From Candidatus Omnitrophota bacterium (GTDB lineage: Bacteria > Omnitrophota > Gorgyraeia > Zapsychrales > Zapsychraceae), in assembly GCA_050250375.1 (NCBI GenBank), contig JBFWOS010000002.1, forward strand, positions 374,345-438,344: DNA of 64,000 nt, given 5' to 3'. The position numbers and the translations under genes were made by a program. Of the stretch, positions 8,000 to 51,325 are shown piece after piece. How positions within the stretch are numbered: the stretch's first letter is position 1; every line of letters begins with the position of its first letter. Below the pieces are notes generated by a model. The model saw only the letters and a list, made by a program, of their open reading frames with translations, searched no databases and had not been told where the DNA came from.

Positions 8000-9748
8000 A
8001 TGGCGAAATTGTTATGTTTGATGAATAACCGCAATGAAGCGTTTCCGCAGAAGGCGGTTGACGCGTTGAGTTACAACAAGGATTGGGAATTCCATTGTTA
8101 TAAAGGCGGCATGGTTTATATGGCCGCGCTGGATCTTCCCTTTAAGAATGTCAGTGATTATTGGCTGGAGGATGATCGTTATGTCCTGATGGTTGATGGA
8201 GAGATTATGTCCTGGAAGGATGAGCCTCAGGATCCTTCAACCGCGCAAAAGCTCCTCAATTTATATCGTTCCAAGGGGCCGGATATGGTCGATTATCTCA
8301 ACGGCAACTTTACTTTGTTCATTTTCGATAAACGGGAAAAATCTTTATGGGTCGCGAACGACCGGATGGGGCTAAGGCCGCTGTATTATTTCGAATACAA
8401 CGGAAAATGTTGTTTTTCATCGGAAGTAAAGGCGTTATTGGCTGATGAGGAATTCCCGGGGAAGTGCAATCTTCAATCAGTCCTTGATTTGCTGACCTAT
8501 GAATACGTCCTGGAAGACCTGACGCTGGTTGAAAATATCTTTGTCTTTCCTTATGCGTCAACCGCCCTGATTGACTCCCGCACGCAGAAACTGGTCCCGC
8601 AGCGTTATTGGGATTTTAATTATCAGCGGGTAGACCAGGCTGAATTGACCGACCGGTATATGGAACAGTATCTGGGTGTGTTCACGCAGGCGGTTGAACG
8701 CACGATGAAAGGGACGTATGCGCCGGTTGGATTGCCGCTCAGCGGAGGCCTCGATTCACGGCTGATTGCCGCGGTCATAGATCGAAGATATTTTCCATTG
8801 CATACATTCACCTTCGGGGAAAAAGGATGTGATGATGTAAAATACGCCCAGAAAATCAGCCGTATCCTGGGTGGAAGTCACCATTATATCCCGATCAAAC
8901 ATGAAGAACTGGGTTCTTTTTTTGAAAAAGGCGTTTCATACAGCGACGGGATGTTTACCTGTCTGCATTATCATTATCTGAATATGACGGATGAACTGGC
9001 CGCGCATGTCAAGATCGCACTCGACGGAATGGCCGGGGATGTTTTTCCCCGCCGGATGTATTCCTATCTTGAGGGGACAGATGTCAACGCCGCCTTTAAA
9101 GCCTTTGATACCTTTGGAGAAAATTTAAGGAGCCGGATTTTTAAGAAAGAATATGCCGGGGATCTTGCAACAGCCCGGCAAAGATTTGACGGGTTATTTG
9201 ACCGTGTGGCCAGGGCCTGTCCGGTGAGCCCGGTTGATTATCTCAATATAACCCAACGGCAGCGAAAGTTTATCAATTACGGCAAGGTCGGGAAACGCAA
9301 TTATGTTGAGATGCGGATGCCGTTTCTCGACTACGATTTTATGGATTTTTGCCTGACGATGCCGCTGGATTTCCGTTTAAACGGCAAACTTGTCAAAAAT
9401 ATTTTCAGGAAATATTATCCGGCCCTGTCCCGCGTTCCGAAGGCTGATGCCGGTCCGCTTTTTCCGAATCGAATTCAGCAGGCGGTTCATTGGAGGATGC
9501 AGGCGTTGAAAACCAAGCTTGGGATCAATTCAAGTTATGCGGATTATAAAAAATATTTCAGGACATTTTTAAAGGGGTTCATCCACGGACAACTTACGTC
9601 CGCAGAATTTAGACGGGTCCCGTATTTCGATCATCAGGAAGTGGGTCAACTGCTGGATGAGCATTTCTCCGGGCAGCAGAATTATGAAAAACAAATCGCG
9701 GCCTTGCTGACTGTTGCCATCTGGTCCAAACAATATTTTAAACAATGA
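8000..9748 (+). CDS. asparagine synthetase (AsnB)-like amidotransferase, exosortase-locus associated; N-terminal Cys nucleophile absent
   Basis: PP-loop SGGLDS motif (LPLSGGLDSRLIAAV), plus RDxxGxxPLYY and SExKAL motifs shared with AsnB. The N-terminus is MAKLLC rather than MCG. Confidence 0.72.
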   Translation: MAKLLCLMNNRNEAFPQKAVDALSYNKDWEFHCYKGGMVYMAALDLPFKNVSDYWLEDDRYVLMVDGEIMSWKDEPQDPSTAQKLLNLYRSKGPDMVDYLNGNFTLFIFDKREKSLWVANDRMGLRPLYYFEYNGKCCFSSEVKALLADEEFPGKCNLQSVLDLLTYEYVLEDLTLVENIFVFPYASTALIDSRTQKLVPQRYWDFNYQRVDQAELTDRYMEQYLGVFTQAVERTMKGTYAPVGLPLSGGLDSRLIAAVIDRRYFPLHTFTFGEKGCDDVKYAQKISRILGGSHHYIPIKHEELGSFFEKGVSYSDGMFTCLHYHYLNMTDELAAHVKIALDGMAGDVFPRRMYSYLEGTDVNAAFKAFDTFGENLRSRIFKKEYAGDLATARQRFDGLFDRVARACPVSPVDYLNITQRQRKFINYGKVGKRNYVEMRMPFLDYDFMDFCLTMPLDFRLNGKLVKNIFRKYYPALSRVPKADAGPLFPNRIQQAVHWRMQALKTKLGINSSYADYKKYFRTFLKGFIHGQLTSAEFRRVPYFDHQEVGQLLDEHFSGQQNYEKQIAALLTVAIWSKQYFKQ

Positions 9749-47054: not shown

Positions 47055-47224
47055 ATATTAAAAAGGACACACAATCCTTAACGCTTTGGTCTTGATTCCG
47101 GGCTTGATTTTTAAACCATTATACACAAAATTGGATGAAAACACCTAAGATAATATAATTGAGGAAGCGAAGAATCCGGGGCCAGGAATCCGAGGCGCGC
47201 ACTGAATGATGAGCCCGCCTCCTC

Positions 47225-47273
47225 CCCCGCCTTAAACCGTAGTTATTTTGTAACATTGGGATTAGGGGGTGGA
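47225..47273. repeat. R1 repeat copy A (CCCCGCCTTAAACCGTAGTTATTTTGTAACATTGGGATTAGGGGGTGGA)
   Basis: 49-nt element. Identical copy at 49592..49640; partial copies at 47941..47967 and 48768..48800. Confidence 0.85.
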
Positions 47274-47829: not shown

Positions 47830-47884
47830 TTATATTATTTAAGTGGAGGCCAATGACCTGGGCTTGTTTGTCCTGGAATAAATT

Positions 47885-47940
47885 AATAAATAGGGACGGA
47901 GGCTATTTATTGTCAAAAGCAGGGTCCGTCCCTAGTTATT
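47885..47940. repeat. H hairpin element copy 1 (TAGGGACGG-N26-CCGTCCCTA)
   Basis: Perfect 9-bp inverted repeat with a conserved loop. Second copy at 48801..48865; partial at about 48424..48478. Confidence 0.8.
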
Positions 47941-47967
47941 TATTTTGTAACATTGGGATTAGGGGTG
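47941..47967. repeat. R1 repeat copy B (3' portion, TATTTTGTAACATTGGGATTAGGGGTGG)
   Basis: Matches the 3' 27 nt of R1 with one G deleted; directly abuts the H element. Confidence 0.8.
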
Positions 47968-48221: not shown

Positions 48222-48423
48222 AAATTCTTCCTTGCTTTATAAGATTGCATTATCTTGTCGGGGGAACATGTTCATTACCCCCATTCCTTTCACTATCATG
48301 CCAATGTGGCCCCAAACCTGGCTGGTTGGGTCCACCTTCTCTGTCCCATCGTCTTCTGGTCCATTCCAATGACGGTGTTTTCCGCCCGTATTATCACTTG
48401 CTTTTGGCTCTTCTGTCTACCCT

Positions 48424-48478
48424 TCTGGAGGGACCCAATCATCGGGATTGGCTGAAAAGCAGGGTCCGTCCCTAGTTA
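48424..48478. repeat. degenerate/partial H element
   Basis: AAAAGCAGGGTCCGTCCCTAGTTA is identical to the right arm of H. The left arm is degenerate (GGGACCC). The element supplies the TAG stop of the 93-aa ORF. Confidence 0.6.
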
Positions 48479-48753
48479 GTCTGATTATTTTCCATTTTCC
48501 TCTTATTATAAACATCTATTAATAGCTTTAAATCTTTTTCATATTCTTCTAAACTAGCCCAACCACTTTCTTTGGAAAAAGTTCTTTCTAACGTCAAATC
48601 CAAATAATTTGCTATTTGTTTCAATTTTTCAAACAACAAAATCTCACGATGTCGGTCTAGTAGTTTAATAATCTTATTAGACTTTCGTAATTCTTTAATT
48701 AAAGATTGAACACTCTGTAGATCTTTTTCCCATCTATCTTCATTAAAATTCAT
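48472..48753 (-). CDS. hypothetical small helical protein, cassette ORF
   Basis: 93 aa, charged, AT-rich; its stop codon lies inside the H-like element. Confidence 0.45.
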   Translation of the reverse strand: MNFNEDRWEKDLQSVQSLIKELRKSNKIIKLLDRHREILLFEKLKQIANYLDLTLERTFSKESGWASLEEYEKDLKLLIDVYNKRKMENNQTN

Positions 48754-48767
48754 ATTAATCTGACCTT

Positions 48768-48800
48768 CCCCGCCTTAAACCGTAGTTATTTTGTAACATT
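48768..48800. repeat. R1 repeat copy C (5' 33 nt), interrupted by the H element
   Basis: CCCCGCCTTAAACCGTAGTTATTTTGTAACATT followed immediately by H at 48801..48865. Confidence 0.8.
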
Positions 48801-48865
48801 TAATAAATAGGGACGGAGGCTATTTATTGGACAAATGTCAAAAGCAGGGTCCGTCCCTAGTTATT
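48801..48865. repeat. H hairpin element copy 2
   Basis: TAGGGACGGAGGCTATTTATTGGACAAATGTCAAAAGCAGGGTCCGTCCCTAG. It contains the TAG stop of the 101-aa ORF. Confidence 0.8.
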
Positions 48866-49537: not shown

Positions 49538-49591
49538 ATAATTTGTGCTAAATCAAGGGTATGTCCCGTTCTCCCAATTTTAACAACCCTT

Positions 49592-49640
49592 CCCCGCCTT
49601 AAACCGTAGTTATTTTGTAACATTGGGATTAGGGGGTGGA
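49592..49640. repeat. R1 repeat copy D
   Basis: Identical to copy A over 49 nt. It supplies the last codons (S-T-P-stop) of the 140-aa ORF. Confidence 0.85.
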
Positions 49641-50080: not shown

Positions 50081-50599
50081 TTACTTGGTGGAGCCGCGGG
50101 GATGGCCAAACCCGAAGTCTTGAAGTAAATCGAACATTTCTTCTGCGAAATCACGACAACTCGAAGTTAATGGTCGATACGGAAAAGGTTTGCCAACCAA
50201 CGAATCCAGATAATTTTTTATTTCTGCATCTTCAAGAGGTGTGGTTTCAAGATAGTAGTCTTCTTTAATTTTCCCACCCTTCAGTGGATCTTCATAAATA
50301 TACCCTGTTAATCCGAATGGCCATGTAAATGTTGGTTCTGTGATAATTATACCGAAACTATATGAGCTATATTCACCGTTAGGATCTCCTACATTAATAC
50401 TTTCATGTGGCAATGGCTCTCCTATAGATGGCCCCTCTATCCAAACATCTAAACCAAACGGATCGATGAACTTTATCGGATTACTAACAGCATACTCATA
50501 AAGATTCAAACTATCCGCATACCCTATCGGATCCCTCTGCAAAAACCTGCCGATACTAGGGTCATACTGTCTGGCCCGATATAGCCGACCGGCAATCAA
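50081..50599 (-). CDS. orphan RHS-repeat-associated core C-terminus plus variable C-terminal toxin domain (truncated; no RHS repeat body, no ATG)
   Basis: RLYRARQYDPSIGRFLQRDPIGYADSLNLYEYAVSNPIKFIDPFGL matches the RHS/YD core-domain end (DPxGL). It is followed by about 125 aa of unique C-terminal sequence. The frame is continuous with pirin apart from a single TAA. Confidence 0.7.
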   Translation of the reverse strand: MIAGRLYRARQYDPSIGRFLQRDPIGYADSLNLYEYAVSNPIKFIDPFGLDVWIEGPSIGEPLPHESINVGDPNGEYSSYSFGIIITEPTFTWPFGLTGYIYEDPLKGGKIKEDYYLETTPLEDAEIKNYLDSLVGKPFPYRPLTSSCRDFAEEMFDLLQDFGFGHPRGSTK

Positions 50600-50605
50600 T
50601 CCATA

Positions 50606-51325
50606 TTATTTAAGATCAAAGAGCAAGAATTCAGAGGCTTCGGGGGATTTGAGAGTGATCTCTTGGGCGTGTTCAATCGCCGCGCCGTCCCCTGTCTTCA
50701 GGGATTGCCCGTCCAGGGTCAATTCCCCTGTAATCATCTGCACCCAGAGGCCGCGGTCCGGTGTTGCCGGATAAACCCTGCTCTGCCCCCGGGCCAATTG
50801 CCCGTGATAAACCCGCGCATCCTGGCTGATGAACAAACAGCGGTCCTCTTCGCGGTTCGACGCAAAAAGGGTTAAGCCGCGGTCTTTTTTTAAACCGGAT
50901 AACGGCAGCTGCTGATAACGCGGTTTCAACCCTTTTTCTCCCGGGAAGATCCATATCTGCAGGAAGTGAACGGGATGGGCGGCTGACGGATTAAATTCGC
51001 TATGGGTAATCCCGGTCCCGGCGCAGATCGCCTGGACCTCGCCGGCCGTCAGCACCGACCCGTGGCCGAGGCTGTCTTTGTGCTCAAGTTCCCCTTCGAT
51101 CACATACGAGATGATCTCCATGTCCCGGTGGGGATGCGCGTCAAACCCGTTGCCGGGCTGGACCGTGTCGTCATTGATGACCCGCAGGGTCCTGAAACGC
51201 GTATGCTCCGGGTCCTGATATTCCCCGAACGAAAAGGTGTGGTATGAATCCAGCCAGCCGAAATCCGCGTGCCCGCGTCCGTCCGCGTGCCGGACGGTTA
51301 TCGTTTTATTTTTGAGTTCACTCAT
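50606..51325 (-). CDS. pirin-family protein
   Basis: Bicupin with HPHRDMEI...E metal-binding motif; full length (239 aa). Confidence 0.85.
   Translation of the reverse strand: MSELKNKTITVRHADGRGHADFGWLDSYHTFSFGEYQDPEHTRFRTLRVINDDTVQPGNGFDAHPHRDMEIISYVIEGELEHKDSLGHGSVLTAGEVQAICAGTGITHSEFNPSAAHPVHFLQIWIFPGEKGLKPRYQQLPLSGLKKDRGLTLFASNREEDRCLFISQDARVYHGQLARGQSRVYPATPDRGLWVQMITGELTLDGQSLKTGDGAAIEHAQEITLKSPEASEFLLFDLK

Follow-up and report, generated by a model that had tools for sequence, protein, structure and literature searches.

We analyzed a 64,000-nt stretch (hereafter the window) of contig JBFWOS010000002.1 from a Candidatus Omnitrophota bacterium (assembly GCA_050250375.1), with a focus on a 172-codon open reading frame (ORF) that lies directly behind a pirin gene and carries the end of an Rhs core followed by a toxin domain (hereafter the tip, or tip 1). 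With a probability of about 0.72, we read this ORF as an orphan C-terminal rhs module (rhs-CT) that is not deliverable and was left by recombination or deletion in a horizontally acquired islet beside pirin. On this reading, the ORF would consist of the last ~45 residues of the Rhs core, including the DPxGL boundary, and an intact toxin domain of ~120 residues, separated from the YD-repeat shell and from the N-terminal trafficking region that delivery requires. The tip would stand at the upstream end of a low-GC islet of 3.4 kb that was acquired horizontally and abuts the pirin stop, its truncation and mosaic core segment would be products of recombination or deletion at the conserved core end, and a 42-nt block in common with a second tip of the same genome could in principle allow it to be grafted onto another rhs gene.

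The Rhs part of the tip is a fragment. It matches the TIGR03696 Rhs_assc_core model above its cutoff (E=3.3e-16) at positions 33 to 76 of 76 only, with the first 32 positions missing and the core end (…YRARQYDPSIGRFLQRDPIG…DPFGL) present, and it matches the last 43 positions (1219 to 1261 of 1261) of NF041261, the E. coli-type RHS core. Homology supported by hidden Markov models (HMMs) starts at residue 9 (YRARQYDP), the first eight codons past the pirin stop (YGLIAGRL) being merely loosely RHS-like, and a comparison with PHROGs matched the RHS core to a phage giant-protein family. No YD-repeat motif occurs in any of the six frames of the whole window, nor does a second RHS core-end motif. Upstream of the core, where the genes are pirin, a PNPOx-like gene, and others, we found no YD-repeat shell (PF05593/TEN_YD-shell), and Pfam and NCBIfam models detected no N-terminal trafficking domain (PAAR, DUF6531, etc.) on the tip ORF. 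An earlier note on this DNA had described a 172-codon ORF that opens in mid-core with no ATG, in the pirin frame and with no upstream YD-repeat body, and had taken it for a displaced or orphan toxin tip; the model coverage and the six-frame search agree with that description, and the partial core, together with the foreign composition, reproduced junction, and mosaic core block presented below, supports the interpretation.

The pirin gene is full length, with 80 homologs from metagenomes aligning up to residue 238-239, overlaps the upstream PNPOx-like gene by 8 nt, and has a host-like composition (GC 0.57; GC at third codon positions, GC3, 0.69). Its TAA stop (50608-50606, minus strand) is followed directly and in frame by TAT GGA TTG ATT GCC…, leading into the 172-codon ORF. 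The TTG, which lies 6 nt (2 codons) past the stop and is the start used in the NCBI annotation, is the only canonical start of the RHS remnant, and there is no in-frame ATG ahead of the toxin domain. No Shine-Dalgarno sequence was found at this TTG, no promoter-like site on the gene strand from 51881 to 49537 (between the PNPOx promoter region at ~51.9 kb and 49.5 kb), and no terminator 3′ of pirin. Lacking both its own promoter and a terminator ahead of it, the tip could be transcribed only by operon read-through; because it also has no ATG or ribosome-binding site, any translation from the TTG on read-through pirin mRNA would be weak at most, and the tip is probably silent. Its in-frame position is best read as a 1-in-3 coincidence, since neighboring genes in this compact genome overlap or sit a few nucleotides apart. 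Among 80 pirin loci of other organisms, none had an RHS motif within ±6 kb, which leaves this genome as the only one in which pirin and Rhs adjoin.

The junction is real in the reads. A Logan short-read contig (run SRR27751816, L002) reads identically across the pirin gene and for a further 66 nt after the stop, and holds 36 nt that are unique to this tip. It ends at window position 50540, the last unique 31-mer being 50570-50540; Logan unitigs use k=31, and a unitig must therefore end on entering the 42-nt repeat that the tip has in common with tip 2, so the break is explained by a genuine repeat. Given these data, we consider it very unlikely that the arrangement is an assembly chimera, whether because pirin and the tip are not truly adjacent or because the 42-nt repeat led to a false join with the toxin domain. 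An exact repeat in the junction region at which the Logan unitig ends, and a source sequence that is a metagenome-assembled genome (MAG), do speak for such an artifact. Against it, the independent Logan contig carries pirin with tip-specific sequence attached, host-like sequence lies on both sides of the islet in one 1-Mb contig, ordinary short reads span a 42-nt repeat, and a swap across the repeat would still give an orphan tip behind pirin. The misassembly that the earlier note had held open is thus not what the reads indicate.

That note had also asked for other RHS core sequence in the genome, and this exists: within the ~84 kb of the 1-Mb contig examined for rhs, two more truncated tips (tips 2 and 3, locus L003) lie ~79 kb away on the same contig in inverted orientation. 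The open frame of tip 2 begins 8 nt past the stop of an asparagine synthase gene (asnB), in a frame other than that of asnB, and has no canonical start before residue ~39. Between tips 1 and 2, identity is 13/36 over the upstream 36 nt, 42/42 over the 42-nt block, and 45/79 downstream; between tips 2 and 3, the corresponding values are 33/36, 36/42, and 45/79, and the block of tip 1 also matches that of tip 3 at 36/42. The chance of 42 straight identities is ~6e-4 at 75% per-site identity and ~5e-3 at 88%, the level seen with tip 3. Tip 2 is a mosaic with its breakpoint at the 5′ edge of the 42-nt block, and the QYDPSIGRFLQRDP-coding segment has therefore been a recombination joint among these tips. 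Scars of mobile elements accompany them: the RHS sequence of tip 2 starts exactly at a 17-nt copy (L003 10030-10047) of the terminal inverted repeat of an element resembling a miniature inverted-repeat transposable element (MITE). This element is perfectly repeated in direct orientation (209 nt, copies at L003 10966-11174 and 13558-13766) and is bounded by terminal inverted repeats of ~18 nt. The tip 3 cassette has a 34-nt direct repeat on its flanks, and direct repeats flank both L003 tips. The MITE terminal repeat is absent from the 64-kb window. As a separate observation, the two MITE-like copies bracket an MBOAT gene and an endonuclease/phosphatase-family gene.

There is also a sharp break in composition at the pirin stop: GC3 is 0.69 in pirin and 0.35 in the tip, the tip itself has a GC content of 0.42, and the ORFs that follow it range from 0.26 to 0.38 before GC returns to 0.47 at the gene for an 823-aa membrane protein. 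The composition of the islet is foreign. It holds the tip and six small ORFs on the same strand (140, 112, 101, 93, 77, and 176 aa); coordinates of these and other features are collected in Table 1.

Table 1. Features of the pirin-tip junction, the islet, and the sister tips; positions refer to the window unless a locus is named
Feature	Position	Strand	Description
Pirin gene	51325-50606	minus	239 aa; Pfam Pirin E=5e-33; Pirin_C_2 covered 1-86 of 86
Low-GC islet	50605-47221	minus	~3.4 kb; GC 0.26-0.42 vs 0.47-0.57 in flanks
RHS-core remnant, YGLIAGRLYRARQYDPSIGRFLQRDPIGYADSLNLYEYAVSNPIKFIDPFGL	50605-50456	minus	50 codons; begins right after the pirin stop, in the pirin frame
Orphan tip ORF (tip 1)	50599 (TTG) to 50081 (TAA)	minus	172 codons; same frame as pirin
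42-nt block, CAGTATGACCCTAGTATCGGCAGGTTTTTGCAGAGGGATCCG	50569-50528	minus	Encodes QYDPSIGRFLQRDP; found by blastn and alignment
Toxin domain	50455-50081	minus	124 codons and TAA; His in PHESINVGDP, Cys in SSCRDF
140-aa ORF	50051-49629	minus	29 nt downstream of the tip; one N-terminal transmembrane segment and a GspG-like (type II pseudopilin-like) domain
112-aa ORF	49537-49199	minus	Three transmembrane segments (hydropathy)
101-aa ORF	49162-48857	minus	Three transmembrane segments (hydropathy)
Mosaic dispersed repeats	49588-49640, 48764-48865, 48451-48480, 47880-47965, 47221-47273	minus	
823-aa polytopic membrane protein	47054-44583	minus	Central spermidine-synthase-like methyltransferase domain; downstream islet border
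Tip 2	L003		218 aa; colicin-E5-type domain; followed by a 100-aa ORF
Tip 3	L003		305-341 aa; whole 76-position core domain kept; followed by a 93-aa ORF

The C-terminal domain of the tip is an intact permuted NlpC/P60-type Cys-His hydrolase with a papain-like fold, in which the His is N-terminal to the Cys. Its fold matches (PLAAT, Aichivirus 2A, PPPDE, the T6SS (type VI secretion system) effector TseH, CLN5, and YiiX) are all permuted NlpC/P60 papain-like enzymes with His before Cys, and Foldseek returned Aichivirus 2A (probability 1.0) and PLAAT4. At the level of sequence, there was no significant match to curated permuted NlpC/P60 models (Peptidase_C97 scored 16.5 bits against a cutoff of 29.2), a profile search of the PDB with the toxin family gave nothing, and links stayed below threshold (PPPDE at E=0.008; Lnb_N/DUF4105 at E=0.0098 in 1 of 28 members). 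The earlier note had recognized nothing in this domain, which can now be assigned to this fold.

An exhaustive HMMER search with the 124-aa domain recovered 281 cluster representatives, most of them short; E was <=1e-10 for 129. Family-wide, a conserved His (H[QE]S[IV]NVGDP) and Cys ([TS]CR) stand ~83 residues apart. The window copy scores 112 bits against a profile built without it (rank 65 of 143) and keeps 29 of the 31 columns that are conserved at >=80%, both changes being conservative; judged from its sequence, it is not degenerate, and its His and Cys are conserved. Several family members are full-length, at 1,237-1,950 aa, and carry RHS repeats, DUF6531, DUF6443, NHL, or C39 domains (RHS_repeat is present in P0111, P0125, P0149, P0152, and P0170). 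In Steroidobacteraceae, a gammaproteobacterium, Cellvibrionaceae, Bdellovibrio, and Methylococcaceae, the domain forms the end of open frames that measure 1,190-2,543 aa (loci L011, L014, L015, L016, and L018). As short orphans, family members occur in Citrobacter, Pseudocitrobacter, and Prochloron, and in tandem orphan arrays. Two further features of the family were observed (P0011, P0017, L004, and L007-L020): some members have a signal-peptide-like N-terminus instead of an RHS core, joined straight to …DPxGL-DVWIEGPS, and most members have a Ser/Thr-rich C-terminal tail that closes with G-T-S-T-S-R, a tail that in the window copy has shrunk to …HPRGSTK.

What the family may do is suggested by relatives in fold. 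Tox-Act1, a T6SS toxin of the permuted NlpC/P60 type, exerts its toxicity in the periplasm alone and is harmless in the cytoplasm, cleaves phosphatidylethanolamine and phosphatidylglycerol, needs His43 and Cys151, and is neutralized by Imm-Act1, which has two transmembrane (TM) helices; phospholipase activity was also reported for TseH (PMC12994826). By fold analogy to PLAAT/LRAT, Tox-Act1, and TseH, and because the immunity proteins of homologs are membrane proteins, we infer that membrane phospholipids, reached from the periplasmic side, are the most likely target of the toxin family. The family of the tip resembles Tox-Act1 and TseH in its permuted NlpC/P60 fold, and Tox-Act1 also in the small TM immunity partners of its homologs, but differs in His-Cys spacing (~83 aa, compared with 108 in Tox-Act1, H43/C151) and in being Rhs-fused, whereas Tox-Act1 and TseH are stand-alone T6SS cargo; Tox-Act1 (STox_15) was compared by its published description only (PMC12994826).

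In 13 of the contexts examined, the toxin gene is followed by a gene for a protein of 76-96 aa with one to three predicted hydrophobic segments (two to three in most), often joined to it by an ATGA overlap or a gap of <=60 nt. These immunity partners fall into two unrelated sequence classes (I and II). At one of the homologous loci (L004), an uncalled 91-aa ORF with three TM segments overlaps the toxin stop by ATGA (8535-8810) and is the likely immunity gene, overlooked when genes were called; the same contig has a primase and a tyrosine integrase a few kilobases downstream.

Behind the tip, neither class was recovered: class I and II immunity HMMs gave nothing significant against all islet ORFs, and no match came from a tblastn comparison of the islet ORFs with 23 RHS loci. 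The 140-aa ORF occupies the position of an immunity gene and is unrelated to either immunity class of the toxin family; its match to Pfam T2SSG is just above the cutoff (E=1e-4, 22.7 bits vs 21), and a homolog search with it returned itself alone. The 112- and 101-aa proteins have an architecture like that of class I immunity proteins, without sequence similarity to them by HMM or BLAST, and had no hits in Pfam, NCBIfam, PHROGs, or PADLOC. All three membrane proteins are candidates for immunity by position and architecture only. For the remaining, soluble ORFs of 93, 77, and 176 aa, no match was found in Pfam, NCBIfam, PHROGs, PADLOC, or protein databases.

The islet is also rich in repeats. 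A unit composed of three parts, CCACCCCCTAATCCCA-ATGTTACAAAATAA-CTACGGTTTAAGGCGGGG (A-O-B), is present in three copies of 98-100% identity, one of them ~79 kb away beside tip 3 (L003 14533-14583), and an element of 60 nt, C, which folds as a DNA hairpin (z = -4.3), substitutes for the left or right half around the common ATGTTACAAAATAA core. In the islet, a copy of this mosaic repeat closes every group of small ORFs. A-O-B itself folds no better than shuffled sequences (z 0.1 to -0.3), leaving C as the only hairpin, and had no match in Rfam and 0 hits in JGI metagenomes. We considered an integron/attC cassette array and rejected it, as A-O-B has no hairpin and no integrase lies within +/-10 kb; neither a recombinase, a tRNA, nor an Rfam family was found in the window. 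A search for the empty site by way of pirin recovered none, the best relatives being only ~50% identical. Two side observations concern the extent of the islet. A 12-nt direct repeat, CTTAAATAATAT, occurs on the minus strand at 50607-50618, ending exactly at the pirin/tip junction, and at 47832-47843, 5 nt ahead of the ATG of the 176-aa ORF; the pair could be a target duplication around a 2.8-kb insertion or could be due to chance in AT-rich DNA (rough p ~0.01-0.06). Separately, ~250 nt at 48222-48471 have no ORF on the gene strand, a GC content above that of their surroundings, a strong GC skew, and no Rfam match.

Orphan rhs-CT/rhsI modules are established in Enterobacteriaceae (Poole et al. 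2011, PMC3150448; Koskiniemi et al. 2014, PMC3967940), where the rhs-CT orphans of Salmonella have no initiation and export signals and are active only after recombination with the main rhs (PMC3967940). The tip is like these orphans in being a 5′-truncated rhs with part of the core up to DPxGL and a variable toxin, in having no initiation and export signals, and in carrying a conserved segment common to other rhs copies, able to act as a substrate for recombination. It is unlike them in lying behind an unrelated housekeeping gene rather than behind a main rhs (none is in the window), in keeping just ~45 core residues with an identical segment of 42 nt rather than ~500 bp, in having no recognizable cognate immunity gene behind it, and in its host, an Omnitrophota MAG. 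Its core segment is near-identical to another rhs copy of the genome, but the partner tips are themselves truncated. The two closest homologs of the toxin (55-56% identity) sit in tandem orphan arrays, in which each tip starts at the repeated core position and is followed by a class II immunity gene; other homologs adjoin tyrosine recombinases and primases, and one is part of a Prochloron orphan array with a SUKH immunity gene.

Within the phylum, the Omnitrophota assembly GCA_043821285.1 offers a comparison (L025 3287-12781): over ~10 kb it encodes a 1,575-aa Rhs, two orphan tips, and small ORFs, all inside the S10 ribosomal-protein operon between rplB and rpsS, with the rhs gene beginning 34 nt past the rplB stop on the same strand. 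That locus has the same kind of core-end segment and tips of 235-292 aa, each with a small ORF behind it, but it differs in having a full-length Rhs ahead of its orphans, which neither the window nor L003 has nearby. Another long contig carries three dispersed tips, and no main gene lies within 10 kb of them.

How the tip came to stand behind pirin, and whether it does anything there, can be explained in several other ways. That pirin and the tip are joined in one protein by programmed stop-codon readthrough, as the earlier note had suggested, is an idea invited by two ORFs in one frame with a single TAA between them, and we give it next to no credence. A TAA followed by T is an efficient terminator context, and the stop here is TAA-T; same-frame placement has a prior of 1/3, the sister tip behind asnB is out of frame, none of the 80 pirin loci elsewhere has an RHS motif nearby, the composition break implies parts of different origin, and a pirin fusion would have no delivery apparatus. 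Expression as a separate protein within the cell is harder to dismiss, although we judge it improbable. Under this explanation, read-through from the PNPOx-pirin operon and termination-reinitiation at the TTG would yield the toxin, which with the downstream membrane protein would act as a toxin-antitoxin-like (TA-like) or growth-modulating pair. The absence of a terminator after pirin and of a separate promoter would permit this, as would a TTG that lies 6 nt from the stop and is the annotated start at NCBI, and the toxin domain is fully intact. Rhs orphans of Salmonella set a precedent as internally expressed toxins that act as type II TA modules (PMC7043789), and Omnitrophota rhs elements stand tight behind same-strand housekeeping genes (asnB 8 nt, rplB 34 nt). 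Yet TTG is a weak start that here comes with no Shine-Dalgarno sequence, and no cognate immunity or antitoxin is recognizable; Tox-Act1 is harmless in the cytoplasm and the tip has no signal peptide, so that a cytoplasmic product would probably have no target; and tight spacing is to be expected in a compact genome. The same spacing could be taken further, to propose that in small-genome Omnitrophota Rhs tips are placed on purpose within a few nucleotides of the end of a same-strand housekeeping gene (pirin 0, asnB 8, and rplB 34 nt, the last inside a ribosomal operon), riding on host transcription and translational coupling as working stand-alone or rapidly swappable cassettes that are moved by a repeat-guided mechanism specific to the lineage and are not dead orphans; we regard this as a long shot.

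The islet, rather than the tip, might be what was selected. Its small membrane-protein genes may serve as acquired immunity against incoming toxins, with the toxin fragment a hitchhiking remnant and the islet perhaps assembled, one cassette after another, at the A-O-B/C repeats through a recombination system peculiar to the lineage. The six small same-strand ORFs, three of them membrane proteins, with a mosaic repeat at the end of each group, fit this view, as do the recurrence of the repeat next to tip 3 ~79 kb off and the homologous tips elsewhere that directly adjoin tyrosine recombinases and primases. The window, on the other hand, contains no recombinase or tRNA, the A-O-B fold is not attC-like (z about 0), neither other RHS loci nor databases contain homologs of the small ORFs, and the repeat is absent from JGI metagenomes; we hold this explanation to be unlikely. 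Our preferred reading, an orphan rhs-CT left by recombination or deletion, has several observations weighing against it as well. No full-length rhs was found in this genome within the part of the contig examined, and a homolog search with the RHS core of tip 3 returned only short proteins and did not recover tip 3 itself, i.e., the search was lossy. The identical block is only 42 nt long, compared with 522 bp at 95% in the Salmonella case (PMC3967940), and the usual type of immunity gene is absent behind the tip, which weakens a role as a ready reservoir. The argument for a probable lipid target is one of fold analogy and of the homologs' membrane immunity proteins. Finally, the toxin ORF has stayed fully intact although it lies in AT-rich DNA, in which stops arise easily; this argues for recent acquisition or some selection and against simple decay.

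As a finding in itself, the tip is ordinary: orphan Rhs toxin fragments are well documented, and this is one more, in Omnitrophota. Its wider use lies in what the comparison brings out. A fold and, by analogy, a likely membrane-lipid-targeting action can be given to a widespread Rhs C-terminal toxin family that has no Pfam model and comprises ~280 clusters in many phyla, and two classes of small membrane immunity partners are recognized for it. The conserved 42-nt core block is a place where short-read assemblies break as well as a marker of recombination joints, which makes it useful for judging MAG quality at polymorphic toxin loci. Omnitrophota are ultra-small, possibly predatory bacteria whose interbacterial weaponry has been little studied, and together these loci document the turnover of Rhs tips in this phylum by recombination, along with the scars of mobile elements.

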